The translations under genes and the position numbers were made by a program. The notes beneath the pieces are model-generated. The model was not told the origin of the DNA, did not search any database, and worked only from the letters and a program-made list of their open reading frames with translations. 64,000 bases of DNA, taken from positions 3,655-67,654 of the forward strand of contig JBHOQO010000139.1 of the NCBI GenBank assembly GCA_042408925.1. Direction: 5' to 3'. Positions 7,853 through 28,579 of the stretch are shown piece after piece. The stretch is from Chloroflexota bacterium. Lineage in GTDB: Bacteria; Chloroflexota; Limnocylindria; Limnocylindrales; CSP1-4. The number at the start of each line of letters is the position of its first letter. Position 1 is the first letter of the stretch.

Positions 7853-8740
7853 CTACGGCGCTCGCGGGTCGACGAAGCGGCAGCGCGGCGCGACCGGGCA
7901 GGCCCTGCAGTTCGGCCGCCGCGCCTCGCAGATCCGCCGGCCGTGCGTGATCAGGTTGACGTGCGCCTCGTACACCTGGTCGGGCCGCAGCAGTTCCAGG
8001 TAGATGTCGTGGCACTCGTCGGCCGTCGCCGTCGCCGGCACGAGCCCGATCCGCTTCGAGACCCGCTCCACGTGCCGGTCGACCGGCATGAGCGGCATCC
8101 CGAAGCAGAACATGAGGATGACCGAAGCCGTCTTCTTGCCGATCCCGTCGATCGACGTCAGCCAGTCGCGGGCTGCGAGCGGCTCCATCGCCCCGAGAAA
8201 CTCGAGCGAGAAGTCGCCCCGCTCGTCCCGGATCCGGCGCAGCGCGGCGACCAATCGCGGCGCCTTCTGCCGGGCGAGCCCCCCGGGCCGGATCGCCTCC
8301 TCGACCTCCTCGATCGGCGCCTCGGCGATCGCCGCCCAGTCCGGCGCCGGCGCCAGCTCGATCCCGAGCCCGCCCCAGCCGTCGGGCGGCGTCCCGTTCG
8401 CCCGCCGGTCGCCGACGACCGGCCCCGAGCCAGGGAAGCGGGCCCGGAGCGACTCGAAGGCCTGCTCGGCGTTCGTGTCGGCGCTGTTCTGGGCGAGGAT
8501 CGTGAGGACGAGCTCGGACGTCGGATCGAGCCGACGGCGCCAGGTCGGTCGCCCGTAGAGCGTGGCGAGCGCGTCGAGGACGAACGCGACGAGACCGGGC
8601 CGGGTTCGTGCGAGGCGCCGAGCCCAGGTTCGGGCCGGGTTCGCGGGCCGGCGTCGGCGGGTCGGCCGCCGGACCGCACGGGCGGACCGTCTCGGTCGCT
8701 TCGAGCCCTCCGGCGGCGCCGTCTCGACCTCCTCGCTCAC
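7853..8740 (-). CDS. nth: Endonuclease III (HhH-GPD base-excision glycosylase with 4Fe-4S cluster), with a basic N-terminal tail
   Basis: HhH-GPD core: LVLTILAQNSADTNAEQAF...DGIGKKTASVILMFCFGMP. Cluster ligands C-x6-C-x2-C-x5-C: CEARRPNCRACPVAPRC. The proposed GTG start at 8738-8740 overlaps the upstream gene's TGA (GTGA); the rest of the 525-aa track ORF is low-complexity. Confidence 0.7.
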   Translation of the reverse strand: MSEEVETAPPEGSKRPRRSARAVRRPTRRRRPANPARTWARRLARTRPGLVAFVLDALATLYGRPTWRRRLDPTSELVLTILAQNSADTNAEQAFESLRARFPGSGPVVGDRRANGTPPDGWGGLGIELAPAPDWAAIAEAPIEEVEEAIRPGGLARQKAPRLVAALRRIRDERGDFSLEFLGAMEPLAARDWLTSIDGIGKKTASVILMFCFGMPLMPVDRHVERVSKRIGLVPATATADECHDIYLELLRPDQVYEAHVNLITHGRRICEARRPNCRACPVAPRCRFVDPRAP

Positions 8741-9981
8741 GCCCCCGAGTGTAGGGCGACCGAAGCCCCGAGGGAGACGCCGAGGGAGACGAGCCGGGCG
8801 ATCCGTTCGCCGCAGCGCTCGAGCGGCGCCGTCCCCGCCGCCATCGCCTCTGCCACCGAGATCGGCGCCTCGACGACCGGAACGACAACGACCCCGAACT
8901 CGCCGAGATCCCGGATCCCCTCCTCCGTCACCCCGCCCCCGACGGCGACGACGGCCCGCCCGGCCGCCCGAGCCCGTCGGGCGACCCCCATCGCCGTCTT
9001 GCCGAAGGCCGTCTGGGCGTCGATCCGGCCCTCGCCGGTGAGGACGAGGTCGGCCGCCTCGAGCTTCGACTCGAACCCCGTTTCGGCCATGACGAGCTCG
9101 ACGCCGGGCTCGAACCGGAGACTCCCGAAGCGCCCGGCGAGGCAGAGGAGGGCGAAGCCGACCCCGCCGGCCGCCCCCGCCCCCGGCGTCGTCCGTTCCC
9201 GACGGCCGGTCGCCGCCTCGAGCCGATCCGCCCAGCGCGCGAGCATCGCGTCGAGGACCGCGACGTCGCCCGGGGCCGCGCCCTTCTGCGGCCCGTACGT
9301 GGCGGCCGCGCCCGTCGGGCCGAGGAGCGGGTTGCCGACGTCGCAGGCGACCGAGAGCTCCACCTCGGCGAGCCGGGGATCGAGATCCGACAGGTCGACG
9401 GTCTCGAGGGCCTCGACGACCGCCGGCCAACCGCCCCCGCCCGGCAGCCCGTCAGCGGCGAGGAGGTCGCCCGATCGGCCCCGCAGCCGCGCCCCGAGGG
9501 CGACGAGGAGCCCGGCCCCGCCGTCGGTCGTCGCGCTCCCGCCGATCCCGAGGGTGATCCGCCGCGCCCCGCCGTCGAGGGCGGCCCGGAGGAGCTCGCC
9601 CGTCCCCCCCGTCGAGACCCGGAACGGATCGCGCTCGGAGGGCGCGAGCCGCGAGAGGCCCGAGGCCTCGGCGAGCTCGACGACCGCTCCCCGTGCCGCC
9701 CCCGCCGCTGCCTCGAGCCAGCGGGCCTCCACCTCCCGGCCGAGGGGGTCGCGGACCCGTGCCGCCCGCCACGCCCAGCCGCCGGCCGCCTCGATGGCGA
9801 CGAGCGTCCCTTCGCCCCCGTCGGCGAGCGGAGCGAGGAGGACCCGATCCCCCGGCCGGGCCCGCCCCCAGCCGGTCGCCAGGGCCCGAGCGACCTCGAC
9901 GGAGGTGAGCGACCCCTTGAACGAATCCGGCGCGACAAGGACGACGAGGCGAGGCTCGTGTCGAGCGGCCGAGCCCGCCAC
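8737..9981 (-). CDS. glxK: Glycerate kinase (GlxK/GarK family)
   Basis: Strong family motifs: VLVAPDSFKGSL, PLADGGEGT, TLGIGGSATTDGGAGLL, VACDVGNPLLGPTGAAATYGPQKGA, GAGAAGGVGFALL and LVLTGEGRIDAQTAFGK. The GTG start is at about 9979-9981. Confidence 0.8.
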   Translation of the reverse strand: MAGSAARHEPRLVVLVAPDSFKGSLTSVEVARALATGWGRARPGDRVLLAPLADGGEGTLVAIEAAGGWAWRAARVRDPLGREVEARWLEAAAGAARGAVVELAEASGLSRLAPSERDPFRVSTGGTGELLRAALDGGARRITLGIGGSATTDGGAGLLVALGARLRGRSGDLLAADGLPGGGGWPAVVEALETVDLSDLDPRLAEVELSVACDVGNPLLGPTGAAATYGPQKGAAPGDVAVLDAMLARWADRLEAATGRRERTTPGAGAAGGVGFALLCLAGRFGSLRFEPGVELVMAETGFESKLEAADLVLTGEGRIDAQTAFGKTAMGVARRARAAGRAVVAVGGGVTEEGIRDLGEFGVVVVPVVEAPISVAEAMAAGTAPLERCGERIARLVSLGVSLGASVALHSGA

Positions 9982-9986
9982 CGCCC

Positions 9987-12007
<2,021 letters not shown>

Positions 12008-12011
<4 letters not shown>

Positions 12012-13435
12012 GCGGGCCGACCCTCCGCCACGGGCGCTGCCACCGTCCCCTGCTCGGCCGGCCCGCGCTCGGCCGTCCAGCGCTCGACGAGGTACGGCTT
12101 GAGGAGCTCGAACTGGCGAGCCAGCCGCTCGACCCGCTCCTCGGCCTGTTCGGACGTGGCGGTCCGGTTCTCGACGACGAAGCCGCCGGCCCGGCCGAAG
12201 TAGATCGGGACGAGGGCGGCGACGAGCTCGGCCCGGGGGCGGTCGCGGTGCCCGGCGGCGACGATGAGGTCGTAGACGACCCGGGTCCAGATGTCGTCCG
12301 GGAAGCCGAAGGCGGCGGCCGCCTCGGCCATCTCGAGGGTCGACGGCCCGCCCGACCCGGCGGTCACGCTCGAGAGCCCGAGCCGGGTCCGGGCCTGGTC
12401 GGCGATCGTGCTCGCCTCGGCGGCGAGCTCGAGGACCGCCTCCGCCGTCGCCGGGGCGAGGATCTCCCGCCAGGTCGGGGCGAGGGTCAGGGCACCGGCC
12501 CCGAACTCGGCGAGGAGTCGGAGGGCGTTCACCTCGAGGGGCGGCGGCTCGAGGATCCGCTCGAAGCCGTAGACCGGGACCGGGTGGCTGCCCCGGATCG
12601 GGAGCCAGCGGTCGGCGTGCTCGATGGCGAGCCGGAGCGTCGTCCCGAGGACCTGCCGAAACATCGGCCCGAGGTCGGCCCCGGGGTCCTTCGGGTCGTG
12701 GACCTTCGCCCCGAGCCGGGTCTGGCAGACGGCGAAGCCGCCGATGAGGGCGTGGGTCGTCATCCAGATGTCGATCCCGAAGCGGCTGACGTCCTCGTCC
12801 CAGTCGTCGAGGCTCAGGTAGTGGCGGACGAGGTCGCCGGAAACGCCGAAGTCGCCGCCGATGGGCTGGCGGATCCGGCGCCCGTAGAGGGCCCGGGTCA
12901 GCGGGTAGGTGACGCTGTTCGTGATCGTGCCGTCGAACTTGTAGCGGGCGTAGAGGGGGGCGACGAAGTCGTAGCCGCCTTTGAGGATCGGGCCGGCGAG
13001 GAGCTCGATCCACTCGGGGAGGATCGAGCGGAGGTCGGAGTCGACGACGATGAGGGCCTCGACTTCGAGGGCGGCCGCGATTTCGAAGATCGTTCGGAGG
13101 GCGGCCCCCTTGCCGCCGACGCCGTCGATCTCCGGGTAGGTAAGGCTGAGGCGGGCGAGGCGGTTCGTCGGCCGGACGAGGAGGATCTGCTCGATGTAGT
13201 CGGGCGGCTCGGTCTCGACGACGACCCGCTGGGTCGCATCCGGGGAGCCGGCGTCGGCGTTGACGAGGACGGGCCGGAGGTCGGGGAAGTACTGGACGAG
13301 GCCGGCCTGGGCGGCGCGAACGACGTAGCCGATGGTCGCCGCGTTCTTGTAGCTCGGGATGCCGACCATGATGTCGGCTCGGCCAAGGCGCTCGACCTCG
13401 TCTCGGATCGCCGGGGTGAGGGTCGTCGCGGGCAC
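12008..13435 (-). CDS. GT81-like (GpgS/MpgS-family, GT-A fold) glycosyltransferase paralog with a roughly 170-aa C-terminal extension
   Basis: Collinear with the GpgS fold: IMVGIPSYKNAATIG (where GpgS has SLVLPTLNEEETIG), GKGAALRTIF (GKGEALWKSL), LIVVDSDLRSILPEW (DxD), APLYARYKFDGTITNSVTYPLTRALYG and QPIGGDFGVSGDLV (QPLSGEYA). The N-terminal Ser/Arg-rich part of the 619-aa track ORF overlaps the upstream gene and is treated as an artifact. The start is uncertain. Confidence 0.5.
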
Positions 13436-13517
13436 GGCTCCACCGTAGCACCCCGAGCGCGCGGCGTCCACGTGACCGACCGGATCGGCTGAGGTGCCGT
13501 GGGTCTGGCCGCGGCCG

Positions 13518-14276
13518 TCAGCGGCGAGGGATCGGGGCGAGGGTCCAGCCGCCGTTCGGGCGGCCCGGTTCGTAGCGGCTGTTCGCCGCCTTGTAGACGA
13601 CGGAGCGGAAGCCGAGCGCCCGCCAGGCGCCGAGCCAGGGCTCGATCGGGAGCCGGACGAACGCCGTCCGGCGGACGAGGGGCCCCTCGGCGAGGACGCT
13701 TTCGAGGAGCCGCTTTCGCTCGAGGAGCGGGACGTCGAGGAGCGGCTCGCCGTCGAGGGCGAGGAGGTCGATGGCGACGAAGGCGAGCCGGTCGCCCGGC
13801 CGGCGTTCGAGGGGCGGGCCGGCATCCTCGCGGCCGCGGCGTCGGCCGAAGACGAGCTGGGCGGCAAGCTCGCCGGCCGTCGGGACCTCGACCTCGCCCG
13901 GCAGGATCCCCTCGCCGCTCCGACTCGCCTGGAGCGTCAAGAACCCGTCGAGGACGGCGTCGGCGGCGCGGATCGCGGCGCGGAGGGCCTCGACGAGGGC
14001 CTCCAGCTCCGCACGGCCCGCCGCCGAGCTCGGATCGGGGTGGGCATCGGGACCGGTCAGGGCCGTTCCCTCGGCGTCGATGATCCGGAGGCCCGCCGCC
14101 TCGAGGTGGACGAGGACCCGTCGGCCCTCCCAGAGCGGCTCGACGATCGGGTCGACGATGTCGCGCGGACGCCGGTCGCCGAAGGCGGCCGGTCGCCAGG
14201 CGGCGCGGTCGGCGAGGGCGGTACGAGGCGCAAGATCCGGGTGGCCCACACTTGGATCGTACTCCCGGCGGGCCAC
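13518..14276 (-). CDS. ATP-dependent DNA ligase-like nucleotidyltransferase-domain protein with degenerate catalytic motif I (KxDG becomes LWEG); probable pseudo-enzyme
   Basis: Ligase motifs are recognisable: EPLWEGRRVLVHLEAAGLRIIDAEG (motif I position), AVLDGFL (III), LAFVAIDLLALDGEPLLDVPLLERKRLL (IIIa), RSVVYK (IV) and NSRYEPGRPNGGW (V). There is no OB domain. The start is uncertain. Confidence 0.45.
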   Translation of the reverse strand: MARREYDPSVGHPDLAPRTALADRAAWRPAAFGDRRPRDIVDPIVEPLWEGRRVLVHLEAAGLRIIDAEGTALTGPDAHPDPSSAAGRAELEALVEALRAAIRAADAVLDGFLTLQASRSGEGILPGEVEVPTAGELAAQLVFGRRRGREDAGPPLERRPGDRLAFVAIDLLALDGEPLLDVPLLERKRLLESVLAEGPLVRRTAFVRLPIEPWLGAWRALGFRSVVYKAANSRYEPGRPNGGWTLAPIPRR

Positions 14277-14295
14277 CGGGCGTGATGAGGGGGCC

Positions 14296-15294
14296 CTACG
14301 GTCCCTCGTACCCCGTCGGATGGTCGAGGAGCCAGGCCCAGGCCGAGCCAATCATCGCCTCGAGGGAGCTCCGGGCAGGGCGCCAGCCGAGGACCTCGGC
14401 CGCGCGCCGGTTCGAGGCGACGAGGATCGGCGGATCGCCGGGGCGGCGCGGGCCGACCCGCTGCGGGATCGGGCGGCCGACGACGGCCTCGGCGGCGGCG
14501 AGGACCTCGCGGACGCTGTAGCCGCGCTCGGTCCCGAGGTTGCAGACGAGGGGCGCCGCGGTCCGCGGGTCGTCGGGCGCGGTCGCCTCGAGGGCGGCCA
14601 GGTGGGCCTCGGCGAGATCGGCGACGTGGATGTAGTCGCGGATGCACGTCCCGTCCGGGGTCGGGTAGTCGTCGCCGTAGACGACGACCTCGGGGGCTCG
14701 TCCCTGGGCGGCGGCGAGGACGTTCGGGATGAGGTGGGTCTCGGGGACGTGCCATTCGCCGACCCGGTCGGTCGCCCCGGCGACGTTGAAGTACCGGAGG
14801 CTGACGCTCCGGAGGCCGTAGGCGTGGCCGTACCAGGAGAGGGCGGCTTCGAGGGTCCGCTTCGTCTCGCCGTACGGGTTGATCGGGCGGAGGGGAGCGT
14901 CCTCGGTGATCGGGACCGCGTCGGGGATCCCGTAGACCGCGGCCGTCGAACTGAGGACGAAGCGCCCGACGCCGGCCCGCCGACAGGCCTCGAGGAGGGC
15001 GATCCCGCCGGCGACGTTGTCGCGATAGTAGCGGGCCGGATCGGCGATCGATTCCCCGACGAGGGAGCGGGCGGCGCAATGGAGGACGGCCTCGATCCCC
15101 TCCTCGCCAAGGAGGTCGCCGACGGCCGCTTCGTCGGCGTACGTCCCGACGACGAGGCGGGCGGCCTCGGGGACCGCGAGCGCGTGGCCCGTCGTGAGGT
15201 CGTCGAGGACGACGACGGTGTGGCCCACCTCGACGAGGCGTTCGACGCTCGCGGCACCGACGTAGCCGGCGCCGCCGGTCACCAGGATGCGCAT
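14296..15294 (-). CDS. galE: UDP-glucose 4-epimerase
   Basis: MRILVTGGAGYVG Rossmann motif, the YxxxK active site in NPYGETKRTLE, and full-length similarity to the GalE pattern (332 aa). Confidence 0.85.
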   Translation of the reverse strand: MRILVTGGAGYVGAASVERLVEVGHTVVVLDDLTTGHALAVPEAARLVVGTYADEAAVGDLLGEEGIEAVLHCAARSLVGESIADPARYYRDNVAGGIALLEACRRAGVGRFVLSSTAAVYGIPDAVPITEDAPLRPINPYGETKRTLEAALSWYGHAYGLRSVSLRYFNVAGATDRVGEWHVPETHLIPNVLAAAQGRAPEVVVYGDDYPTPDGTCIRDYIHVADLAEAHLAALEATAPDDPRTAAPLVCNLGTERGYSVREVLAAAEAVVGRPIPQRVGPRRPGDPPILVASNRRAAEVLGWRPARSSLEAMIGSAWAWLLDHPTGYEGP

Positions 15295-15383
15295 CGGCGG
15301 AGCGAGCGGGGGTTCGGGCGGGCGATCGGAGCGAGCGCGAGGATCATTGAGCGGATGGTAGCCGGCCGGGATGGTGACGGGCC

Positions 15384-15839
15384 TCAGGGCCGGCGGAGGA
15401 GCCGGCCCAGCCAGCCGCGCCGTCGTCGCGCGGGGGCATCGGCGTCGCGCGGCGCGGGCGGCCGGGCGTCCGGGTGCGCTTCGGGTGCCGCCCGGGTCGC
15501 GGGTGCCACACCGGTCTCGGGTGCCGCCCCGGTCTCGGGTGCCGCCCCGGTCTCGGGTGCCGCCCCGGTTGCCGCCGCCCGGGTCGCTCGAACCTCCTCG
15601 AGGCGGGCGACGAGCCGCTGCGCCGCGACGTTCTCGGGATCGGCCGCCAGGGCCTGCCGTGCCAGCTCGAGCGCTCCCGCTTCGTCACCGCGCTCGAGGG
15701 CGACCCGAGCGAGCCCGACGATGGCGATGGCGTTCCCGGGGTCGGCGGCGAGGACCTGCCGGTACGTCTGCTCGGCCCGATCGAGGAGCCCGGCGACGAG
15801 GGCCCGCTCGGCGTCGAGGAGGAGCTCGATGGTCGTCAC
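15384..15839 (-). CDS. TPR-repeat protein with a C-terminal AAPETG tandem repeat
   Basis: TPR-like helices: YRQVLAADPGNAIAIVGLARVALERGDEAGALELARQALAADPEN. The C-terminal AAPETG x3 is encoded by an 18-bp tandem repeat at about 15485-15560. Confidence 0.45.
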   Translation of the reverse strand: MTTIELLLDAERALVAGLLDRAEQTYRQVLAADPGNAIAIVGLARVALERGDEAGALELARQALAADPENVAAQRLVARLEEVRATRAAATGAAPETGAAPETGAAPETGVAPATRAAPEAHPDARPPAPRDADAPARRRRGWLGRLLRRP

Positions 15840-15845
15840 GATCCG

Positions 15846-17250
15846 CTACGCCTCGTCGGCGGCCAGGGACCGGGCGAGGAGGAGGAGGGTCGGTCGCTCG
15901 TTCAGCGACGGGTCGGCGACGACCCGCTCGAGGAGGGCGTCGAGGATTCGACCGAGGCGCGGCCCCGGCTCCACACCGAGCTCGGCGATGAGGTCGTCGC
16001 CGTCGACGGCGAGGTCGCGTCGGTCGAGGACGACCGGGCCGGCGAGGATCGCCGCGACGCGCGCCTCGAGCTCGGCCACGCCGGTCGCTTCGGGCGGCAG
16101 GCCGCTCCCGACGTTGTCGGCCCGTCGCAAGGCGAAGAGCTCGTCGAGGGCGTCGGGGCCGATCCGGGCGATGAAGCGTCGGACGGCGGCGTCGCTCCAG
16201 CTCCCCTCGTAGGAGAACATGTGGTGACGGACGAGGTGGGCGACCCGCTCGATCGTCTCGCGGGGCAGCCGGAGGCGCCGGAGGATCACCTCGCTCAGCT
16301 CCGCCCCCCGGAGCTCGTGGCCCGGGAAGTGCCCCTCGGCGGCCGTTCCGGGCTTGCCGACGTCGTGGAGGAGGGCAGCGAGCCGGACGATCGGCCGCTC
16401 GGCCGGTGCGGCATCGACGGTCCGGAGCGTGTGGGCCCAGAGGTCGTCGCCGGGAACCTTGGCCTGGGGGACCCCGCGCTGGGCGGCGAGCTCGGGGAGG
16501 AGGCGTTCGAGAAGGCCGGTCGCCTCGAGGAGCCCGAGGCCGATGGACGGCCGGCGGGCGGCGAGGAGCTTCGTCAGCTCGGCCGCGATCCGTTCGCCCG
16601 AAAGGTGGCGGACGAGGTCGGCCCGCTCCCGGATCGCCGCGAGCGTGGCCGGCTCGATCTCGAACTCGAGGACGGCGGCGAGGCGGATCGCCCGGACCAT
16701 CCGGAGGGCGTCCTCCCCGAAGCGGTCGAACGGGTTGCCGACGGCCCGGATCCGGCGGGCGGCGAGGTCGGCGAGGCCGCCGTGGGGGTCGACCAGGCGG
16801 ATCTCGGCGGGCGTGCCGTCGGGGCTCGGCTCGGCGCCCCAGGCGAGGGCGTTGATCGTGAAGTCGCGGCGGGCGAGGTCGTCCTCGATCCGCTCGCCAA
16901 ACTCGACCCGGTGGGGGCGGCGGAAGTCGGCGTACTCGTGCTCGGAGCGGAAGGTCGTGATCTCGTGGACGCCGTCCCGGCGGCGGACGCCGACGGTCCC
17001 GAACTGGTTCTCGTACGACGCGTCGGGGAAGACCGCCAGGACCTCCTCGGGGCGGGCGGCGGTGGCGAGGTCCCAGTCGGCGGCCGGGCGGTCGAGGAGG
17101 ACGTCGCGGAGCGAGCCGCCGACGAGGTAGGCGGCGTGGCCGGCGGCCCAGAGCCGGCGGAGGAGGTCGAGGACGGGTTCGGGGACGGCGGCGGCGATCT
17201 TCGCCCGGGCGGCCTCGGGATCGAGCGGCTCGGCGGGCGTGTTCGGCTCG
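15846..17250 (-). CDS. cca: CCA-adding enzyme / poly(A) polymerase-family tRNA nucleotidyltransferase with a C-terminal HD domain
   Basis: Pol-beta nucleotidyltransferase head GGSLRDVLLDRPAADWDLAT; RDFTINALAW; HD region HLVRHHMF...LRRADNVGSG. The start is approximate; the upstream part of the track ORF runs through a 17-bp tandem repeat and the HNH gene in another frame. Confidence 0.65.
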
Positions 17251-17368: not shown

Positions 17369-17884
17369 TCAGCTCCGGCCGAGGAAGAGGTACGTCCGCC
17401 ACGCCTCGTTCCGCGAATCGGCGAGGTACGGCGTGAACAGCGAGTAGACGTCGCTCCTCGGCTCGAAGGGCTGCCGGATCAGGCGCATCCGAGCCTCCTC
17501 GAGGGTCTTGCCGCCCTTGCGGTGGTTGCAGCTCTTGCAGGCCGTCACGAGGTTCTCCCAGGTGTGGCCGCCGCCGCGGTGGCGGGGCACGACGTGATCG
17601 AGGGTCAAATCGTTCGTCTGGCGGCCGCAGTACTGACAGGTGTAGTGGTCGCGGGCGAAGACCTCGCGACGGGCGAGCCGGACCCGCGGTCGCGGTCGCC
17701 GGACGAGGTGCTGGAGGCGGATTACGGACGGCGCCCGGAACTCGGTCCGCGGCGTCCGGACGACCTGGTGGTCGTATTCGATGACCTCGGCCTTGGCGCC
17801 CAGGATGAGCCGGAACGCGCGCGGCAGGTTGCACACGTTCAGCGGCTCGTAGTTCTGGTTCAGCACGAGGACGACGCCGTCCAT
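17369..17884 (-). CDS. HNH endonuclease
   Basis: HNH motif YTCQYCGRQTNDLTLDHVVPRHRGGGHTWENLVTACKSCNHRKGG, preceded by the conserved LVLNQNYEPLNV N-terminus. I trimmed the start to the internal ATG (MDGVVLVL). Confidence 0.7.
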   Translation of the reverse strand: MDGVVLVLNQNYEPLNVCNLPRAFRLILGAKAEVIEYDHQVVRTPRTEFRAPSVIRLQHLVRRPRPRVRLARREVFARDHYTCQYCGRQTNDLTLDHVVPRHRGGGHTWENLVTACKSCNHRKGGKTLEEARMRLIRQPFEPRSDVYSLFTPYLADSRNEAWRTYLFLGRS

Positions 17885-17989
17885 GATGGAGGCGATGGTA
17901 ATCGAGCCGAGCCCGGCGTGTTGTCCGCGCGGGTGCCGGTCGTCCTCGGCCGCGTCCGCGGCCCCGCCCCGTGCCGGCCCGCCGCGCCC

Positions 17990-18295
17990 AGCCATTCGTC
18001 CGGTGCATGGAATGTCGTGCGGCACCGGCCGCGACGCGCCACCTATTCACCCGGCGCATCTCCGCCCCGGTCGGCGGCCCTCCGCCGCTCCGCGCATTCC
18101 CGAGGCGAATACAAGCCGGCCCGCAACCGGCCGCGACCGACCGTGCATTCTCCCGGCGAATGGGCGACCAGGCCGGCCGCCCATCGGCGCCCGTACATTC
18201 ACCGCCCGCATGATCGACCGGGGTCGGCCGCGTCGCATCACGCCAGCATGCGCCCGATGAATGTCCGACGATCTCCGGACGTCAGTCCCGGGCTC
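17990..18295. repeat. Six-unit tandem array with about 51-bp period; each unit carries an imperfect CATTC-N7-8-GAATG inverted repeat
   Basis: Units begin near 17993 (cattcgtccggtgcatggaatg), 18044 (tattcacccggcgcatc), 18096 (cattcccgaggcgaata), 18146 (cattctcccggcgaatg), 18196 (cattcaccgcccgcatga) and 18247 (catgcgcccgatgaatg). The array lies in the roughly 500-bp gap between the HNH gene's 5' end and the liu operon's 3' end. Confidence 0.7.
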
Positions 18296-18391
18296 GGCCA
18301 CCCAGGGCCACTCCGCCGCCCCCGGCCCCCTTCGTGGCGCCGCTCCCGGCGACCGCCCGGCCGCCCGCAGCACCCGACCGCCTGCCGCCCC

Positions 18392-19381
18392 TCAGTCGGG
18401 CCGAACCGGCCACCCGCCGGCCTGGCCCACCTTCGAGGCCAGCGGCCGCCCGAGCGCCCCGCTGATGAAGCGACCCGCCTCGAGGACCCCCGCCAGGTCC
18501 ACCCCGTGCTCCCAGCCCTCGCCGTCGAGCAGGTAGACGAGGTCCTCCGTCGCCAGGTTGCCGGCCGCGCCCGGGGCGTACGGGCAGCCGCCCGTCCCGC
18601 CGCTCGAGGCGTCGAAGCAGCGGACGCCCGCGGCCAGGCCCGCCACCACGTTCGCGAGCGCCGTCCCTCGAGTGTCGTGGAGGTGGAGGGCGAGCCGGTC
18701 GAGTCCGATCCCGGCGTCCACCGCCCGCCCGACGAGGTCGCCGACCTGGCTGGGCACCCCGACCCCGATCGTGTCGCCGAAGCAGACCTCGTCGACCCCG
18801 AGCTCGAGGAGGCGGGCCCCGACGGCGACCGCCCGGGCCGGGTCGACCCGCCCCTCGTACGGGCAGCCGAAGGCGGTCGAGACGTAGCCGCGGACCCACC
18901 AGCCCCGCTCGCGGGCCGCGGCGACGACCGGGCCGAACGTCGCCAGGCTCTCGGCGACGGTCATCCCGATGTTGTGGCGGGTGAAGGCGTCCGTGGCGGC
19001 CGTGAAGACCGCGATCGCCTCGATCCCGGCCCGTTCCGCCCGCTCCAGGCCCCGGAGGTTCGGGACGAGGGCGACGTAGCGGATCCCCGGGCGCCGCGGG
19101 AGCCCGGCCGCGACCGCCTCGGCGTCGGCGAGCTGGGGGACGGCGCGGGGCGAGACGAAGCTCGTCGCCTCGATCTCCCGGAGTCCGGCGGCGACGAGCA
19201 GCTCAAGGTACCGGAGCTTCGCCGCGGTCGGGATCGGGGTCGCCTCGTTCTGGAGGCCGTCGCGCGGCCCGACCTCGTAGATCCGGACCCGACGGTCCGC
19301 GGCCGCCGGCGGGTCGGCGCCCGGTTGCCGGGCGGTCGGGTCGGGCCCGGTCCCTTCGGCTCCGGCCCCGATCCCGCCCAC
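18392..19381 (-). CDS. Hydroxymethylglutaryl-CoA lyase
   Basis: VRIYEVGPRDGLQNE, TSFVSPRAVPQ, the HLHDTRGTALANV motif and C-terminal GGCPYAPGAAGN are characteristic of HMGL. The start may be internal. Confidence 0.75.
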   Translation of the reverse strand: MGGIGAGAEGTGPDPTARQPGADPPAAADRRVRIYEVGPRDGLQNEATPIPTAAKLRYLELLVAAGLREIEATSFVSPRAVPQLADAEAVAAGLPRRPGIRYVALVPNLRGLERAERAGIEAIAVFTAATDAFTRHNIGMTVAESLATFGPVVAAARERGWWVRGYVSTAFGCPYEGRVDPARAVAVGARLLELGVDEVCFGDTIGVGVPSQVGDLVGRAVDAGIGLDRLALHLHDTRGTALANVVAGLAAGVRCFDASSGGTGGCPYAPGAAGNLATEDLVYLLDGEGWEHGVDLAGVLEAGRFISGALGRPLASKVGQAGGWPVRPD

Positions 19382-19400
19382 GACCTCGCTCCCGAGCGGC

Positions 19401-19676
19401 CTACAGCCGCGGCGGATCCGCGGTCCGGTCGAGCTCGGCGATGGCGACCTCGATCCGGGCGATCTCCTGGACGGCGGCGACCCACTCCTCGCTCCCGAGC
19501 GGCGCCGCGTTCCGACGCCGCCGTGCCGCGGCGTGGGCGGCGAGGAGCGCCTCGCGGGTGGGCCGCTCCCCGCCCGATGCGGCGGCGGTCGTCGGGGGAT
19601 CGGTGACTGGTGGTCGGTTCGGCGTCGGCATCGCGAATGTCGGTCCCGTCTGGCGATCGAGCTTCGGCTCGATCAT
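19401..19676 (-). CDS. Small hypothetical protein (about 91 aa) between the methylcrotonyl-CoA carboxylase alpha gene and the HMG-CoA lyase gene
   Basis: An ATG-initiated ORF MIEPKLDRQTGPTFAMPTPNRPP...EEWVAAVQEIARIEVAIAELDRTADPPRL fills the gap. No family was recognised, so this could be a GC artifact. Confidence 0.25.
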   Translation of the reverse strand: MIEPKLDRQTGPTFAMPTPNRPPVTDPPTTAAASGGERPTREALLAAHAAARRRRNAAPLGSEEWVAAVQEIARIEVAIAELDRTADPPRL

Positions 19677-19708
19677 CGTAGCGCCTCTAGCGCCTCGGCT
19701 GAGGAGCC

Positions 19709-21850
19709 TCAGGCCTCGATGAGGGCGATGAGGTCGCCCCGGGCGAGCTGGTCGCCGCGCCCCACGGCCAAGTCGACGACCCGGCCCGGCCCCGGAGCGG
19801 CGACGACGTGCTCCATCTTCATCGCCTCGAGGGTGACGATCGGGTCGCCGGCTTCGACGTGGTCCCCGACCGCGACGTGGACGACGCCGACGAGGCCCGG
19901 CATCGGCGCCTCCACGACCTGGGCGCCGCCGGCGTGGCCGCGCTCGGCCGTCCGGACCGCGGCCTCGACGTCGGGCGGTGGGGCGAGCCGGAAGGCGACC
20001 GAGCGGCCCGCAACGTCGACGTGGGCAACGAGTCCGTCGACGGCCGCGGCCGGGAGGGGCTCGCCCGCCACCGAGCGGTCGTCGGCCCCTCCACCCTCCG
20101 GGTCGAGGAGGACCGTTCGAGCGGTCCCGTCCTCGGCGACGAGTCGCAGGGACGCTCCGAACGGTCGCCAGCCGCCGCCCCACGGGTCGCCGCGCCGGGC
20201 TGCCTCGGCCTCGAGCGCGCCCCGCAGGGCCTCGCCGGCCGCCCGCCAGACCGCCTCGGCCTCGCCGGCCCTTCGAACCCGTTCGGCCCAGTCGTCCGGC
20301 GGCCAGATGGCGGCGAGCGTGTCGGTTCGGGCCAGCCCCTCGCGGACGACCGGCTGCCGAACGAGCCACCGGAGGAAGCGGAGGTTCGTGACGAGCCCGA
20401 GGAGGCGGGTCGCCTCGAGGGCCGCCGCCAGCCGATCGAGGGCGGCCTCGCGGTCGGGGCCGTGGGCGGCGATCTTGGCGAGGAGCGGGTCGAACCGTCC
20501 GCCCACGACCGAGCCGACCTCGACGCCCGCGTCGACCCGTATCCCCGGCCCCTCCGGCCAGGCGAGGTCGAGAATGCGACCCGTCGCCGGCAGGAAGCCC
20601 GCCTCGGCGTCCTCGGCGTAGAGGCGGACCTCGACGGCATGGCCGCCGGCCTCGAAGGCCCGAAGGACGTCGCCCTGGTCGAGCCCGAGCGGCTCGCCGG
20701 CGGCGACCCGGAGCTGGTCGGCGACGAGGTCGCGACCCGTGACCGCCTCGGTGACGGGGTGCTCGACCTGGAGGCGGGTGTTCATCTCGAGGAAGACGAA
20801 CCGGTTCGTCTCGTCGAGGAGGAACTCGCACGTTCCGGCTCCGACGTAGCCGACGGCCGACGCAAGCCGGAGGGCCGCCTCGCCGAGGGCCGCCCGCAGC
20901 TCCGGGGTCAGCCGCGGCGCCGGCGCCTCTTCGAGGATCTTCTGGTGGCGCCGCTGGAGCGAGCAGTCGCGCTCGCCCAGGTGGACGCCCCGACCGTGGG
21001 CATCGAAGAGGACCTGAACCTCGACGTGGCGAGGGTGCTCGAGGTAGCGCTCGAGGAGGAGGCGGTCGTCTCCGAAGGCCGCCCGGGCCTCCCGACGGGC
21101 CGCGGCGAGGACCGCTCCGAGACCCTCGAGGCTCCGGACGACCCGCATCCCCTTGCCGCCGCCGCCGGCCGCCGGCTTGACGATGAGCGGAGGGCCGAGT
21201 CGCTCGGCCGCGGCGAGGAGCGAGGCGTCGGATTGGTCGGCGGGGGCGTCGCCCTCGGCGACCGGGATTCCGAGGCGGCGGGCGAGCTCGCGGGCGCGGG
21301 CCTTGTCGCCCATCGCCTCGATCGCCTCGGGCGGCGGGCCGACCCAGCGGATCCCGGCGGCGAGGACGCGGCGGGCGAAGTCGGGATTCTCGGCGAGGAA
21401 GCCGTAGCCGGGGTGGAGGGCGTCGGCGCCGGCGGCGAGGGCGGCAACAACGACCTCCTCGGGGTCGAGGAGGTCGAGAGGTTCGGGCGATGCGGACGCG
21501 GGCAGGGCCGGCCGGCCGTCGTCGACGAGGGGAAGCACGGCTTCGATCCCGAGGCGGTGGCAGGTTCGGGCGATCCGGGCCGCGATCTCGCCCCGGTTCG
21601 CGACGAAGCAGCGGCGGATCGGGCGGGCGGGTGCCGTGGCCGTCGTCTGTGCGGCCCCACGAGCGGTCGATCCCGCAGCGCCGAGCGCGGCGAGGGCGGC
21701 GACGGGCACCCGCCACCGACCGCCGACCCGCCGGGCCGGGAGGCGGCCGGCAGCGATCCAGCGCTGGACGGTTCGGGTGCTCGTCCCCAGGCGGCGCGCC
21801 GCTTCGGACGGCGAGCACTCGAACCGATCGTCAGCCGGTCGCGCGGTCAT
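19709..21850 (-). CDS. Methylcrotonyl-CoA (acyl-CoA) carboxylase alpha subunit: biotin carboxylase plus BCCP, with an N-terminal excisionase/MerR-type HTH extension
   Basis: Biotin-carboxylase motifs: IRRCFVANRGEIAARI, the ATP-grasp fold, and C-terminal BCCP EAMKMEH. The first roughly 45 aa (RRLGTSTRTVQRWIAAGRLPARRVGGRWRVP) match HTH_17/excisionase-type DNA-binding helices. They sit in the same frame as the carboxylase with no intervening stop. Confidence 0.75.
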   Translation of the reverse strand: MTARPADDRFECSPSEAARRLGTSTRTVQRWIAAGRLPARRVGGRWRVPVAALAALGAAGSTARGAAQTTATAPARPIRRCFVANRGEIAARIARTCHRLGIEAVLPLVDDGRPALPASASPEPLDLLDPEEVVVAALAAGADALHPGYGFLAENPDFARRVLAAGIRWVGPPPEAIEAMGDKARARELARRLGIPVAEGDAPADQSDASLLAAAERLGPPLIVKPAAGGGGKGMRVVRSLEGLGAVLAAARREARAAFGDDRLLLERYLEHPRHVEVQVLFDAHGRGVHLGERDCSLQRRHQKILEEAPAPRLTPELRAALGEAALRLASAVGYVGAGTCEFLLDETNRFVFLEMNTRLQVEHPVTEAVTGRDLVADQLRVAAGEPLGLDQGDVLRAFEAGGHAVEVRLYAEDAEAGFLPATGRILDLAWPEGPGIRVDAGVEVGSVVGGRFDPLLAKIAAHGPDREAALDRLAAALEATRLLGLVTNLRFLRWLVRQPVVREGLARTDTLAAIWPPDDWAERVRRAGEAEAVWRAAGEALRGALEAEAARRGDPWGGGWRPFGASLRLVAEDGTARTVLLDPEGGGADDRSVAGEPLPAAAVDGLVAHVDVAGRSVAFRLAPPPDVEAAVRTAERGHAGGAQVVEAPMPGLVGVVHVAVGDHVEAGDPIVTLEAMKMEHVVAAPGPGRVVDLAVGRGDQLARGDLIALIEA

Positions 21851-22027
21851 GATCGCGACCCGGAGCCTGCCGGCGGCCCGATCACGCGCGTCATTCCGGG
21901 CTCCGTCGCTCGCTGCGCCGCCGCCGCCGGCTGGGGCACCAACGCTGGCTGCCGCTCGGTCATGGCTGTCGCGATTGTCGCGTTTGACGCGCCCGCTCGC
22001 AAGCCCGGCCGACGCTTCGAGCGAGGG

Positions 22028-22924
22028 TCAGTCGGTCGGCGCGCCGTCGTCGGGCGCCCAGCTCGGGCGGCGACGATCGAGGAACGCCCGGATCCCCTCC
22101 CGCGCCTCGGCGCTCGCCCGCTGCCGGGCGAGGACCCGGGCCGTGTGCCAGCGGGCCGAGCCGTAGGAGAGCCCGCGGACCTCCCTGACGATCGCCTTCG
22201 CCGCCCGGACGGCCGTGGGCCCGCCGGCCAGGATGTCGGCGACGACGGCGTCGACGGCCGTGTCGAGGGCCGCCGCTCCCTCGACGACCTCGTGGACGAG
22301 GCCGATCCGCTGGGCGCGGAGGGCATCGAAGCGCCGCCCGGTGACGAAGAGGGCTCGGGCCTCGCTCTCGCCGAGCTTGGCGACGACGAACGGCGCGATG
22401 ACAGCCGGCAGCAGCCCGAGCCGGACCTCGCTGAACCCGAACCGCGTCCCGCTCTCGGCGACGACGACGTCGGCGACGGCGCAGAGGCCGACGCCGCCCC
22501 CGAGGGCCGCGCCGTGGACCCGCGCCACGACCGGCACCGGGCAGGCGTCGATCGCCTCGAACATTTCGGCGATGGCGAGGGCGTCCTGCTCGTTCGCCTC
22601 GAGGTCGAGCTCGGCCGCCGCGAGCATCCCGCGGAGGTCGGCTCCCGCCGAGAAGACCGGGCCGTCGGCGGCGAGGACGACGGCCCGCAGCTCGCTCGGC
22701 GCCTCGCGGGCCAGGGCCGCGAAGGTGGACCGAAGGGCCCCGACGAGCTCGGCGTCGAAGGCGTTCCGGGTCTCGGGGCGGGCGAGGACGACCCGGGCGA
22801 CGCTGCCGCGGGGGCCGGTCCGCTCGACGCGAAGGGCAGGGCTCACCGCCCGGATCGTATCAGCCACGGGTCGGCCGCTCGGTGCCGTGCCGGCCCCTCG
22901 GTGCCGTGCCGGCCCCTCGGCCAT
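22028..22924 (-). CDS. Enoyl-CoA hydratase/isomerase (probable methylglutaconyl-CoA hydratase)
   Basis: Crotonase fold motifs: VVLARPETRNAF, AVVLAADGPVFSAGADL, HGAALGGGVGLCAVADVVVA and FGFSEVRLGLLP. The start is uncertain (ATG at about 22924 or GTG at about 22846). Confidence 0.7.
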   Translation of the reverse strand: MAEGPARHRGAGTAPSGRPVADTIRAVSPALRVERTGPRGSVARVVLARPETRNAFDAELVGALRSTFAALAREAPSELRAVVLAADGPVFSAGADLRGMLAAAELDLEANEQDALAIAEMFEAIDACPVPVVARVHGAALGGGVGLCAVADVVVAESGTRFGFSEVRLGLLPAVIAPFVVAKLGESEARALFVTGRRFDALRAQRIGLVHEVVEGAAALDTAVDAVVADILAGGPTAVRAAKAIVREVRGLSYGSARWHTARVLARQRASAEAREGIRAFLDRRRPSWAPDDGAPTD

Positions 22925-23129
22925 CGGTCCGGTGCCGTTTCTTCGGCCTTCGGCGCCGTGCCGGCTTGTCGGCGTTCCGGAGACGCGGCGATCCTCGTCG
23001 GGGTCGCCGGCCGTGCGGGCGCACACCGTTCCGAGAGCGCCGGCGCTGGTGACGCGCACCGACCGTGACGACTCCCGTCGTGGCCGGCCCCGGTGGACAC
23101 CGTTCCCAGAGCACCACCGTGCGGATGAC

Positions 23130-23147
23130 TGGACTTAGCTAAGTCCA
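23130..23147. promoter_or_regulatory. Perfect 18-bp palindrome TGGACTTAG|CTAAGTCCA, 19 bp upstream of the phd start; candidate TA autoregulatory operator
   Basis: Read directly at 23129-23148: 'ctggacttagctaagtccat'. Confidence 0.55.
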
Positions 23148-23165
23148 TCAGCTACGCTCCCACGC

Positions 23166-23399
23166 ATGCAGGTGAACATCCACGAAGCGAAGACGCACCT
23201 CTCACGGCTCGTCGATCGAGCGGCCGCCGGCGAGGACATCGTGATCGCCAGAGCCGGCCGGCCGGTCGCCCGCCTCGTCCGCTTCGAGCCGCCGCGTGAG
23301 GCCCGACGCCTCGGTATCTGGCGGGGTCAGGTCCGGATCGGCCCCGACTTCGACGCCGTCGATGACGCCCTCGCCGACCTCTTCGAAGGCGAGCGGTGA
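23166..23399 (+). CDS. Type II antitoxin, Phd/YefM family
   Basis: MQVNIHEAKTHLSRLVDRAAAGEDIVIARAGRPVARLV is a canonical Phd/YefM N-terminus. Its stop overlaps the toxin's GTG start (GTGA). Confidence 0.8.
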   Translation: MQVNIHEAKTHLSRLVDRAAAGEDIVIARAGRPVARLVRFEPPREARRLGIWRGQVRIGPDFDAVDDALADLFEGER

Positions 23400-23773
23400 G
23401 GCTCCTCCTCGACACGCACGCGTTTCTCTGGGCACTCGCCCTGCCGGATGAACTGCGACTCGAGGCGAGACGGGCGATCGAGGATCCCCGGAACGACGTC
23501 TTCGTCAGTGCCGCATCTGCCTGGGAGATCGCGATCAAGCGCGCCCTCGGACGCCTGGAGGCGCCCGACGATCTCGGTGATGCCATCGGAGCGGTCGGCT
23601 TCGTCGAGCTGCCGATCACGATCGGGCACGCGCTCGCCGTCGAGCGGCTGGCCCGCCACCATCGCGATCCCTTCGACCGGATGCTCATCGCCCAGGCCCT
23701 CGTCGAGGGCTTGATCATCGTCACCCGCGACGCTCGCTTCGAGCCGTACGGCGTGCCCGTCCTCCGTGCTTGA
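23396..23773 (+). CDS. vapC: Type II toxin VapC (PIN domain ribonuclease)
   Basis: MRLLLDTHAFLWAL..., with acidic residues in PIN positions (D6, E, D near the C-terminus: IVTRDARF). Confidence 0.8.
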   Translation: MRLLLDTHAFLWALALPDELRLEARRAIEDPRNDVFVSAASAWEIAIKRALGRLEAPDDLGDAIGAVGFVELPITIGHALAVERLARHHRDPFDRMLIAQALVEGLIIVTRDARFEPYGVPVLRA

Positions 23774-23821
23774 CGCGCCGGCTCGGCCGCGTGGCGCTGG
23801 CGCGGCGGGGGAGTTGGCTTT

Positions 23822-24000
23822 GTGCCCTCGGATGTTCGGCCGCGCTGCGGCGGCCCGCCCGAGTCGTTCGGCTACGGCTGCGCCCGTGGGTATCCCCTGC
23901 GAGTCGCGGCCGCCCGCCGGAGCCGGTCCATGACCGCCCGCCCGAGTCGTTCGGCTATGGCTGCCCCGGTGGGTGCCCCCTCCGAGCGGCGGCCGCCCGC
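23822..24000. repeat. Tandem duplication (about 90 bp x2) that copies the last roughly 24 codons plus stop region of tsaC/sua5
   Basis: Units at about 23822-23911 and about 23912-24000 are nearly identical: 'gcccgagtcgttcggcta[c/t]ggctgc[g/c]cc[c/g]gtgggt[at/gc]cccct[gc/c]gag[t/c][c/g]gcggccgcccgccggagccggtccatgaccgcccgcccgag'. The reverse complement encodes LGRAVMDRLRRAAA(A/T)RRG(H/Y)P. Confidence 0.7.
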
Positions 24001-25007
24001 CGGAGCCGGTCCATGACCGCCCGCCCGAGGCCGACCTCGGGGACGGGCTGGGCGACGATCCGATCGAGCTCGGCCGCGTCGAGGGCGTGGAGGGCGACGA
24101 AGAGGCGAGCTGCCGCCTCGACTGGGTCGCCGGTCGGGCTCAGGACTTCGACGGCGACGAAGGGACCGCCGACGGCCTCGGCGATGCGCCGTCCTTCGGC
24201 GTCGGCGGCGAGGAGGCCGAGTCGCTCGCCGGGCTTCGCCCGCGGCGTCGCGTCGGGCGCGAGCAGGACCAGCGTCGCCCGCGGGGCATAGTGGCCCGCT
24301 GCCCGGCCGGGGGAGAGGGATCGGGCCTCGTGCTCGGGCGGGATCTCGACCGGGCCGACGACCGCTTCGAGTGCCTCGAGGGGCGTGCCGCCCGGCCGGA
24401 GGAGGACGGCCCGGTTGGGGGCGAGGAGGAGGACGGTCGATTCGACGCCGATCCGGCATGGCCCGCCGTCGAGGATGAGGCCGACCCGGCCGTCGAGCTG
24501 GCGGGCGACGTGCTCGGCCCGGGTCGGGCTGACCCGGCCGAAGCGGTTCGCCGAGGGGGCGGCAATCGGGACGCCGGCGGCCCGGATGAGGGCGAGGGCC
24601 ACCGGGTGGTCGGGGATCCGGACCCCGACGGTCTCCAGGCCGGCGGTCACGACGCCCGGCACGACCCTCCGCTTCGGAACGACGAGGGTGAGGGGGCCCG
24701 GCCAGAAGCGCTGGGCGAGGGCTCGAAGGCGGGGGTCGGCGAGGGCTTCGGGCCGGACGACGGTTGCGAGGTCGGCGGGCTCGGCGAGGTGGACGATGAG
24801 GGGATCGAAGGCGGGGCGTTCCTTGATCTCGAAGATCCGGGCTGCGGCGAGCGGGTCGAGGGCGTTCGCCCCGAGACCGTAGACGGTCTCGGTCGGGAAG
24901 GCGACCGGCTCGCCGGCCCGGATCCTGGCGGCCGCCTCGGCGATCGCCGCGGGGTCGTCGCCGGGCAGGATCCGGGGTCGGGTCGAGGCGGGCTCGTCGG
25001 TCGTCAC
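23955..25007 (-). CDS. tsaC: L-threonylcarbamoyladenylate synthase (YrdC domain plus Sua5 C-terminal domain)
   Basis: YrdC motifs VAFPTETVYGLGANAL, IFEIKERPAFDPLIVH and SANRFG; the Sua5 C-terminal domain follows. Confidence 0.8.
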   Translation of the reverse strand: MTTDEPASTRPRILPGDDPAAIAEAAARIRAGEPVAFPTETVYGLGANALDPLAAARIFEIKERPAFDPLIVHLAEPADLATVVRPEALADPRLRALAQRFWPGPLTLVVPKRRVVPGVVTAGLETVGVRIPDHPVALALIRAAGVPIAAPSANRFGRVSPTRAEHVARQLDGRVGLILDGGPCRIGVESTVLLLAPNRAVLLRPGGTPLEALEAVVGPVEIPPEHEARSLSPGRAAGHYAPRATLVLLAPDATPRAKPGERLGLLAADAEGRRIAEAVGGPFVAVEVLSPTGDPVEAAARLFVALHALDAAELDRIVAQPVPEVGLGRAVMDRLRRAAAARRGHPPGQP

Positions 25008-25084
25008 GGCCCGAGTCTACGGTCGGGTCCGGGGTCGGCGGCGGACTCGGCGATCGTCGCCCTCGGACGGCCGAGCTCGCCGCT

Positions 25085-25540
25085 CCATCCCCGTGACGGC
25101 TTCCTGGACATCTGCGGACTCGGCCTTGCGCGGGTGTCGAGCGCGACGGCCTGGCTGGACATCTCACCTCGGTCGGGCCCTTCGGTGCGCGCCATGACGG
25201 CCTGACTTGACATTTGGTGGTGCCGTCTCGCTCGGCTGCTGCGCGTGACGGCCTGGCTGGACATCTCACCTCGGTCGGGCCCTTCGGTGCGCGCCGTGAC
25301 GGCCTGACTTGACATTTGGTGGTGCCTGCGGGCCTACGAGCGTGAACTGTCCAGCTACGGCGTCACGGCCGGCACCGGGCCGGTCCGAATGCGTGAACTG
25401 TCCAGCTACGGCGTCACGGCCGGGCTGCCCGAGCCCCTGAGCTGCGAACTGTCCAGCTACGGCGTCACGGCCGGGCTGCCCGAGCCCCTGAGCTGCGAAC
25501 TGTCCAGCTACGGCGTCACGGCCAGGACCTGACACGACCC
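25085..25540. repeat. Intergenic repeat cluster with about 9 copies of the same roughly 22-bp motif family seen at 7.6 kb (GTGACGGC-TGGCTGGACATCT and inverted GAACTGTCCAGCTACGGCGTCACGGCC), spaced about 51-52 bp apart
   Basis: Direct copies near 25092, 25141, 25194, 25245 and 25297; inverted copies near 25350, 25393, 25445 and 25497. Two larger roughly 105-bp units are duplicated (25137-25240 and 25243-25345). Confidence 0.75.
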
Positions 25541-25552
25541 CACGAACGAGCC

Positions 25553-26893: not shown

Positions 26894-27063
26894 GCGCCGA
26901 GCATACGGAGCAAACGGGCGCCGTGCCCGACCGGGGTGGTCGGCTGCCTGCTCCTGCTATCGTCGATGGGACTTCGGCCCGGAAGGAGGAGGACGGTCTC
27001 GCGGATGGCACCGAACGGAGCGTCATCGAGCGCCAGCAACCGGCCGTGCGCCGACCGGCGGCG

Positions 27064-27870: not shown

Positions 27871-27872
27871 CT

Positions 27873-28475: not shown

Positions 28476-28504
28476 CGACCCTCCGACGACCTCGTCCCGC
28501 CGCG

Positions 28505-28523
28505 GGTTCCCGCAACCCGCCCG
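28505..28523. promoter_or_regulatory. GC hairpin / inverted repeat GCGGGTT-CCCGC-AACCCGC between the lipoprotein gene and the AbrB-type antitoxin gene
   Basis: Read directly: 'gcgggttcccgcaacccgc' (7-bp stem, 5-nt loop). It could be an operator or a structural element. Confidence 0.35.
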
Positions 28524-28579
28524 CCGAAAGGCAGCCCGGCACCACGGCTGGTGGATGGTCTCGTGGTATGTTCCGTGGC

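Follow-up and report, generated by a model that had tools for sequence, protein, structure and literature searches.

Is a protein that has the fold of an ATP-dependent DNA ligase and no lysine at its adenylation site still an enzyme, the product of a damaged gene, or something else? The question is raised by a gene, here called pLig, in a 64,000-nucleotide (nt) stretch of DNA from a Chloroflexota bacterium of the class Limnocylindria (GenBank assembly GCA_042408925.1, contig JBHOQO010000139.1, positions 3,655 to 67,654), to which we refer as the window. The original prediction, made from the letters alone, had described its product as a ligase-like nucleotidyltransferase (NTase) domain in which the KxDG of motif I reads LWEG, and had taken it for a pseudo-ligase or an adenylate-binding scaffold. 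We think it fairly probable that pLig is a stand-alone, catalytically dead descendant of a LigD-type adenylation domain that lacks the OB domain, and likely a non-catalytic binding module that goes with a glucosylglycerate operon. It belongs to a clade-wide family of such lysine-less, OB-less ligase domains, and the firm part of the functional prediction is only that it is not a ligase.

Several lines of comparison place the protein among ligases. Pfam PF01068 (DNA_ligase_A_M) matches the long open reading frame (ORF) version of pLig at amino acids (aa) 69-269 at E 1.9e-7; its 31.4 bits exceed the gathering score of 26.2. The ligase models of NCBIfam match in part and far under their cutoffs; the best of them, TIGR02779 for the ligase of non-homologous end joining (NHEJ), gives E 3.6e-11 and 42.8 against 227.75 bits, and two other LigD/LigC equivalog models, TIGR02776 and NF007210, reach 24.1 against 373.2 and 33.4 against 989 bits. 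When searched against PDB, the single pLig sequence retrieved mycobacterial LigD ligase domains at E 1e-5, and a family profile of 31 sequences (A1) retrieved them at E 1.3e-12, with an alignment now covering the motif I region. The AlphaFold2 model built on A1 has a mean predicted local distance difference test score (pLDDT) of 85.7 and a predicted template modelling score (pTM) of 0.79, with poor loops only at residues 123-130 and 145-150. All 50 of the PDB matches listed by Foldseek for this model are ATP-dependent DNA ligases (archaeal, LigD, and human Lig1/3/4), at E from 1.2e-12 to about 1e-7, probability 1.00 and a TM-score of ~0.57 on the query; among viral models, DNA ligases rank first and capping enzymes after. 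Structure prediction had been proposed as a check on the original claim, and it returns the nucleotidyltransferase fold. Together, the predicted structure and the profile matches assign pLig to the ligase NTase fold far beyond chance.

We then compared the catalytic motifs using HMMER alignments to Mycobacterium tuberculosis LigD and archaeal ligases. The LigD residues used for reference, which we take to be Lys481, Asp483, Glu530, Glu613, Lys635, and Lys637, come from chain alignments and the LigD literature. In motif I, EPLWEGRR of pLig aligns with EGKWDGYR of LigD, replacing Lys481 with Leu48 and Asp483 with Glu50 as originally predicted; E46, W49, G51, and R53 are kept. In motif III, the ribose- and metal-contacting Glu530 is Phe112 in pLig and Tyr in most relatives. 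The adenine-stacking aromatic residue of motif IIIa is Ile169 (Val in most relatives), and in motif IV the metal-binding Glu613 is Arg224, which varies in the family, and Glu-Gly has become Arg-Ser, with Lys229 kept and nearly invariant. These changes in motifs III, IIIa, and IV go beyond the losses first noted. Motif V, whose lysines had been reported lost, indeed reads W244-T-L-A-P in place of W-x-K-x-K, with Leu246 and Pro248 at the two lysine positions, both variable in the family. The protein stops at aa 252, 8 residues past W244, leaving no OB domain (again as predicted) and no motif VI, and the ORF that follows encodes a glycosyltransferase. The two strings first quoted as recognizable ligase motifs are present in the translation, LAFVAIDLLALDGEPLLDVPLLERKRLL at aa 164-191 and NSRYEPGRPNGGW at aa 232-244. 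In all, five of the six ligase catalytic motifs are degenerate or absent. Because the nucleophile, the phosphate and metal ligands, and the OB domain are missing, established ligase chemistry predicts that pLig is unable to form lysyl-AMP or to seal nicks.

The same losses recur throughout a large family. A search of 5.8 billion proteins yielded more than 1000 pLig homologues, the best 120 of which are all 214-277 aa long and 42-100% identical to pLig over ~90% of its length. An exhaustive profile search of 1.84 billion cluster representatives (50% identity) gave 101 clusters with E<=1e-30 and 369 with E<=1e-10; for true ligases, which score ~50 bits against the family profile, only values above about 1e-8 are expected in this library. 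We aligned 267 retrieved sequences to the family hidden Markov model (HMM) and counted the residue at the motif I lysine position in 210 of them. This residue is Leu in 137, Val in 24, Ala in 15, Met in 6, Gln in 5, and His in 5, with others making up the rest apart from a single Lys. Orthologues that retain the lysine had been suggested as something to look for, and the sole bearer (P0145, EPKWSGVR) is without the Asp and without every other catalytic residue. The W, G, and R of motif I are invariant in this census. At the motif III Glu position we counted Tyr 155, Val 27, Phe 12, and His 12, with no Glu, and at the motif IV Lys position Lys 211 and Arg 19.

An entropy analysis of 159 full-length members over 217 columns separates the positions further. 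The ex-catalytic positions (motif I Lys and Asp, motif IV Glu-Gly, and both motif V lysines) have Shannon entropies of 1.9-3.1 bits, corresponding to the 49th-90th percentile of variability. Residues E46, W49, G51, R53, D110, D170, and K229 are at <=0.3 bits (0.20 bits for K229), and ~34 residues are near-invariant among these members. There are also family-specific invariant Arg and Trp residues outside the classic motifs; R202, R208, P210, W214, W218, R219, and N232 may form a family-specific surface. No intermediates between the family and true ligases are visible among the relatives retrieved.

These patterns bear on whether pLig might still be an enzyme, a nucleotidyltransferase or other phosphotransferase that employs a non-canonical nucleophile or direct transfer (for example through K229, K188, or Y235) and whose substrate may be a sugar or glycerate of the operon. 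The fold is kept together with a set of invariant polar residues, and the genomic context is one of nucleotide-sugar metabolism. However, the superfamily's positions for binding the alpha-phosphate or the catalytic metal all vary among pLig proteins, no new invariant acidic or basic residue has arisen in the motifs as a substitute, and neither an OB domain nor motif VI is present to orient the leaving group. We found no precedent for such an enzyme within the covalent NTase superfamily in the literature searched, and we know of none. We consider continued catalysis very improbable.

A pattern scan in which each GTDB species was represented by one genome confirmed pLig relatives in 414 genomes. 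Among the best 80 loci of these, 79 carry the labels Chloroflexota, Chloroflexi, Chloroflexia, Anaerolineaceae, Limnocylindria, or Limnocylindrales. The outlying labels, Verrucomicrobiia for one locus and Binatia for one protein match, are taken to be binning or labelling noise. Judging from the aligned sequences, the loss of catalytic residues is a family trait across the Chloroflexota class Limnocylindria and not a local defect. Long matches that could have been domain fusions (P0214, P0255, P0256, P0212, and P0213) proved to be read-through or wrong-frame gene calls, and none of ~270 sequences has pLig fused to any partner. Public gene calls of the family are sometimes chimeric with a wrong frame of the downstream glycosyltransferase. 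The PADLOC (defence) and PHROGs (phage) libraries contain no match to pLig.

Could the gene nevertheless be an artefact: a pseudogene in decay, an ORF in the wrong frame, or a real ligase gene with a sequencing error? The window is ~75% GC, at which many spurious long ORFs arise, and databases do label some relatives as DNA ligase. Even so, hundreds of independent assemblies agree in frame, length, and substitutions. The GC contents of the three codon positions of pLig (GC1/GC2/GC3, 0.83 / 0.55 / 0.90) match those of the neighbouring genes. An in-frame second GTG at 14249 is the start of a public gene call (P0001, 243 aa) that is 100% identical to pLig. A longer, TTG-started ORF reaching 14351 runs over the end of galE (stop at 14296) and receives no support from relatives, and the plus-strand ORFs 13494..14285 and 13771..16212 are without homologue support. 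Another frame or start with an intact KxDG was the outcome named at the outset as one that would overturn the prediction; none restores KxDG at this locus, given that hundreds of homologues keep this frame. A scan of 13300-14500 for promoters and terminators found none and is uninformative for this organism.

Selection was estimated from NG86 ratios of nonsynonymous to synonymous substitution rates (dN/dS) over 60 genome pairs with 70-93% identity between their pLig proteins. The median dN/dS of pLig is 0.31. For genes of the same block, the same pairs give 0.11 (a glycosyltransferase resembling glucosylglycerate synthase, termed Ggs-like), 0.10 (a Usp-GpgS fusion), 0.16 (GalE), 0.19 (the CCA-adding enzyme), 0.17 (glycerate kinase), and 0.14 (an HhH-GPD glycosylase). 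Across the class, pLig proteins are 37-46% identical where the adjacent Ggs-like proteins are 72-86% identical. pLig is clearly under purifying selection, yet the constraint on it is weaker than on its neighbours by a factor of two to three; the gene therefore has a function and is not a decaying pseudogene. Taken with frame conservation, GC3, the ~34 near-invariant residues, and the confident AlphaFold2 model, this ratio refutes an artefactual origin, to which we give almost no weight. The relaxed but purifying pattern fits a pseudo-enzyme or an adaptor with a limited functional surface. Operationally, pLig would thus be a pseudo-enzyme, being homologous to an enzyme, devoid of essential catalytic residues by alignment, and under purifying selection. 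The pseudo-ligase half of the original prediction stands on the ligase NTase fold, the family-wide absence of the motif I and V lysines, the missing OB domain, and this selection.

What remains conserved offers a clue to the present role. A review of ligase structures (PMC7470946) assigns these contacts: the acidic residue in motif I forms a hydrogen bond to adenine N6, the Lys of motif IV contacts N1 of adenine, and the Arg of motif I the hydroxyls of the ribose; the base sits in a sandwich formed by a motif IV aliphatic residue and a motif IIIa aromatic residue, and dealing with the alpha-phosphate and metal falls to the motif I and V lysines and to acidic residues in motifs I, III, and IV. 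In the pLig family, the base- and ribose-reading residues (E46, the Glu at -2 of motif I, together with R53 and K229) are nearly invariant, and the phosphate and metal ligands have all drifted. We suggest that pLig may keep the adenine/ribose half of the old pocket, formed by E46, R53, K229, and the hydrophobic sandwich, and that the phosphate/metal half would have been released from constraint. From this retained half-pocket and released half, we infer that pLig might act as a ligand-binding or adaptor module. A putative ligand would be adenine nucleoside- or nucleotide-containing, such as ATP, ADP, AMP, NAD, or ADP-glucose. Binding of an adenylate may thus be entertained as a hypothesis, with some support from the near-invariance of these three residues.

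The original placement of pLig between galE and a solute operon is borne out, with galE upstream and glucosylglycerate genes downstream. Gene order is nearly fixed in the loci examined, and the minus strand of the window follows it: HNH nuclease, CCA-adding enzyme, TPR protein, GalE, a variable insert, pLig, Ggs-like, Usp-Usp-GpgS, glycerate kinase (preceded in some loci by GNAT), HhH-GPD glycosylase, response regulator, and histidine kinase. The interval from the pLig stop to the Ggs-like start has a median of 59 nt; 66 of 83 loci have an interval of <=150 nt, and in 9 loci the two genes overlap by 1-4 nt. GalE lies >500 nt from pLig in 43 of 71 loci, other genes intervene in most relatives, and in one locus (L001) an MFS gene on the opposite strand separates the two. 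Because GalE is often distant and the gap to the Ggs-like gene is short, pLig is most tightly linked to the downstream glucosylglycerate genes. As far as gene spacing can tell, pLig and the Ggs-like gene are probably co-transcribed, with pLig as the leading cistron of the glucosylglycerate genes. pLig would then be expressed as the first cistron of a Ggs-like / Usp-GpgS / glycerate kinase operon, which nearly always follows it. The coordinates of the gene, its motifs, and its closest neighbours are collected in the table.

Table. Positions in the window of pLig, its motif remnants, and adjacent genes
Feature	Position	Strand	Remarks
pLig coding sequence	13518..14276	(-)	252 aa from GTG at 14276; stop TGA 13518-13520
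N-terminal W27-R28-P29 motif	14190..14198	(-)	Nearly invariant (W 167, R 185, P 192 in the aligned family); before the first NTase-core strand
Motif I, degenerate, EPLWEGRR (aa 46-53)	14118..14141	(-)	Replaces E-x-K-x-D-G-x-R
Motif III, degenerate, LDGFLT (aa 109-114)	13935..13952	(-)	vvEGELV / VLDG in solved ligases; Asp-Gly kept
Motif IIIa region, FVAIDLLALDG (aa 166-176)	13749..13781	(-)	FWAFDLLYLDG in LigD; D170 and D175 invariant
PLLERKR helix start (aa 183-189)	13710..13730	(-)	Invariant; corresponds to structural ...RR..LLE element of real ligases
Motif IV, degenerate, GFRSVVYK (aa 222-229)	13590..13613	(-)	Replaces G-W-E-G-V-I-A-K
NSRYEPGRPNGGW and motif V remnant W-T-L-A-P (aa 232-248)	13533..13583	(-)	SxYxPG...W scaffold kept
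GalE, UDP-glucose 4-epimerase	14296..15294	(-)	TIGR01179 E 1.1e-110; upstream, 17 nt from pLig start
Ggs-like glycosyltransferase	12008..13471	(-)	Downstream; NF010496 E 2.8e-13, PDB GpgS 4y6n E 2e-6
Usp-Usp-GpgS fusion (glucosyl-3-phosphoglycerate synthase)	9987..12011	(-)	NF010496 E 2.8e-111, above cutoff; PF00582 twice

A more specific form of the binding-module view is that pLig is a metabolic sensor, which would bind an adenine nucleotide or ADP-glucose through the half-site and control the adjacent glucosylglycerate pathway (compatible solute / nitrogen stress). ADP-glucose is included because single-step glucosylglycerate synthase prefers it. pLig would in that case be the first pseudo-ligase with such a role. 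Both the sensing and the role are speculative, and we rate them as improbable.

Some observations weigh against the binding module and its tie to the operon. Residues E46, R53, and K229 could owe their conservation to fold stability and not to a ligand, and the case for nucleotide binding is weakened by the stacking aromatic now being Val or Ile and by the loss of the ribose-contacting Glu. All members belong to one class with strongly conserved gene order, and the operon link may be inherited synteny. Finally, one locus in a lake metagenome-assembled genome (L034, VGPE01000020.1, 1..3749) consists of the CCA enzyme, the TPR gene, pLig, glycerate kinase, and the HhH-GPD gene. Its pLig is intact (289.8 bits to the family HMM, with WRP changed to VRP) and the locus is without galE, the Ggs-like gene, and Usp-GpgS, which suggests that pLig is independent of the adjacent glycosyltransferase genes.

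That locus bears equally on the idea that pLig is purely a structural or assembly subunit, binding a partner such as the Ggs-like protein or Usp-GpgS through its family-specific surface, with the old nucleotide pocket empty. The invariant family-specific Arg and Trp residues outside the classic motifs, the tight and sometimes overlapping junction with the Ggs-like gene, the unconstrained ex-active-site positions, and a rate of evolution two to three times that of the neighbours, as is often the case for adaptors, are all in keeping with a structural subunit. The lake genome, however, keeps pLig intact where both glycosyltransferase genes are absent from the locus, no fusion to a partner exists among the ~270 sequences, and a purely structural role leaves the near-invariance of E46, R53, and K229 unexplained. 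We regard it as rather unlikely.

A role in repair has to be weighed against the same gene block. pLig might be a non-catalytic factor that binds nucleic acid at nicks, ends, or damage, a degenerate LigD paralogue working with the HhH-GPD glycosylase or with a Ku/LigD encoded elsewhere in the genome. Its nearest relatives are NHEJ-type ligase domains (TIGR02779 and the LigD structures), most loci, that of the lake genome among them, have the HhH-GPD gene in this block, and about ten basic residues are conserved in pLig. Nick recognition by ligases requires lysyl-AMP plus an OB or other clamp domain, and pLig has neither; with an isoelectric point of 6.4, it is also not basic overall. The HhH-GPD gene lies 4-6 kb off with metabolic genes between. 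Pfam scans of 25 ORFs of the window found no Ku and no LigD POL or PE domains, nor were any found in the context loci, and the window holds no second ligase-like ORF. A repair function is in our judgement doubtful, more so than a structural one, and a non-catalytic binding module linked to the glucosylglycerate genes is the reading we keep.

Some features of the surrounding genes deserve mention in their own right. The Ggs-like gene encodes a distant GpgS paralogue of 475-487 aa whose relatives are named 'glucosylglycerate synthase' by JGI. Within the block it ranks with the most conserved genes (72-94% identical across the class), and its product has no Pfam-A match above threshold, with ~200 C-terminal residues lacking an assigned domain. 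The operon appears to encode both a one-step (Ggs-like) and a two-step (GpgS) route to glucosylglycerate; glycerate kinase is at 8737..9363 and beyond, and no GpgP phosphatase turned up in those cluster genes that were scanned. A very long ORF at 9987..13451 (-) is a wrong-frame or read-through product with an Arg/Pro-rich tail, typical of 75% GC DNA. The TPR gene (15384..15839, -) contains an 18-nt tandem repeat of 4.9 copies with 91% matches at 15482..15569, which encodes GAAPET-type repeats in the C-terminal tail of the protein. Upstream of the block, 17369..34077 (-) holds the HNH nuclease gene and then an apparent leucine / methylcrotonyl-CoA catabolic set (HMG-CoA lyase-like, biotin carboxylase, enoyl-CoA hydratase, and carboxyltransferase), with Sua5 and MOSC-domain genes interspersed. 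This order recurs in three distant relatives (L001-L003), an unusually rigid long-range synteny in the class.

In databases, pLig homologues go under 'hypothetical protein', 'ATP-dependent DNA ligase', or 'LigD'; P0015, P0018, P0026, P0075, P0115, and others are named 'ATP-dependent DNA ligase' or 'bifunctional non-homologous end joining protein LigD'. Because the lysine as well as the OB, POL, and PE domains are missing, this naming is, by all indications of the alignments, a systematic misannotation. It would wrongly credit Limnocylindria, which are abundant and uncultured in soil and freshwater, with extra ligase or NHEJ capacity, and recognition of a lysine-less, OB-less family corrects it. 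In the literature searched, including a recent comparative Limnocylindria paper, we found no description of a lysine-less bacterial ligase homologue or of this family, nor of any pseudo-enzyme of the covalent nucleotidyltransferase superfamily that is conserved, selected, and stand-alone. The family offers a natural experiment for setting the ligase residues needed for the fold or ligand recognition apart from those needed for chemistry. If pLig were indeed a nucleotide-sensing regulator of glucosylglycerate synthesis, it would represent a new reuse of a DNA-repair domain.

Among known systems, the ligase domain of LigD/LigC (M. tuberculosis Rv0938 LigDom, PDB 1vs0 and 6nhx; TIGR02779) is the best sequence and profile match and has the same NTase fold. 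The two share E-x-x-W-x-G-x-R, LDG, F-x-A-x-DLL-x-LDG, ER+R..L, the motif IV Lys, and S-R-Y-x-P-G...W. In contrast, all six reference residues of LigD are replaced in pLig, which has no OB, POL, or PE domains and no Ku gene nearby and is restricted to one clade. Compared with ATP-dependent DNA ligases generally (PF01068; archaeal, human Lig1/3/4), pLig passes the Pfam gathering score and gives Foldseek E values of 1e-12 to 1e-8, but it is a single domain of ~230 aa without DNA-binding or OB domains. With the motif I Lys, the motif III, IV, and V residues, the OB domain, and the equivalog cutoffs all failing, its sequence indicates that it is not to be filed as a DNA ligase. The NTases of mRNA capping enzymes and RNA ligases share the superfamily fold, rank lower in the structural search, and show far weaker sequence similarity than DNA ligases do; they also use the motif I Lys that pLig lacks. 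The closest analogy, as opposed to homology, is with pseudokinase-like pseudoenzymes. Pseudokinases belong to another fold and superfamily, and nucleotide binding by pLig is a prediction; like pLig, they have kept the fold and part of the ligand-recognition residues, have lost the catalytic residues, and evolve under purifying selection with a relaxed dN/dS.

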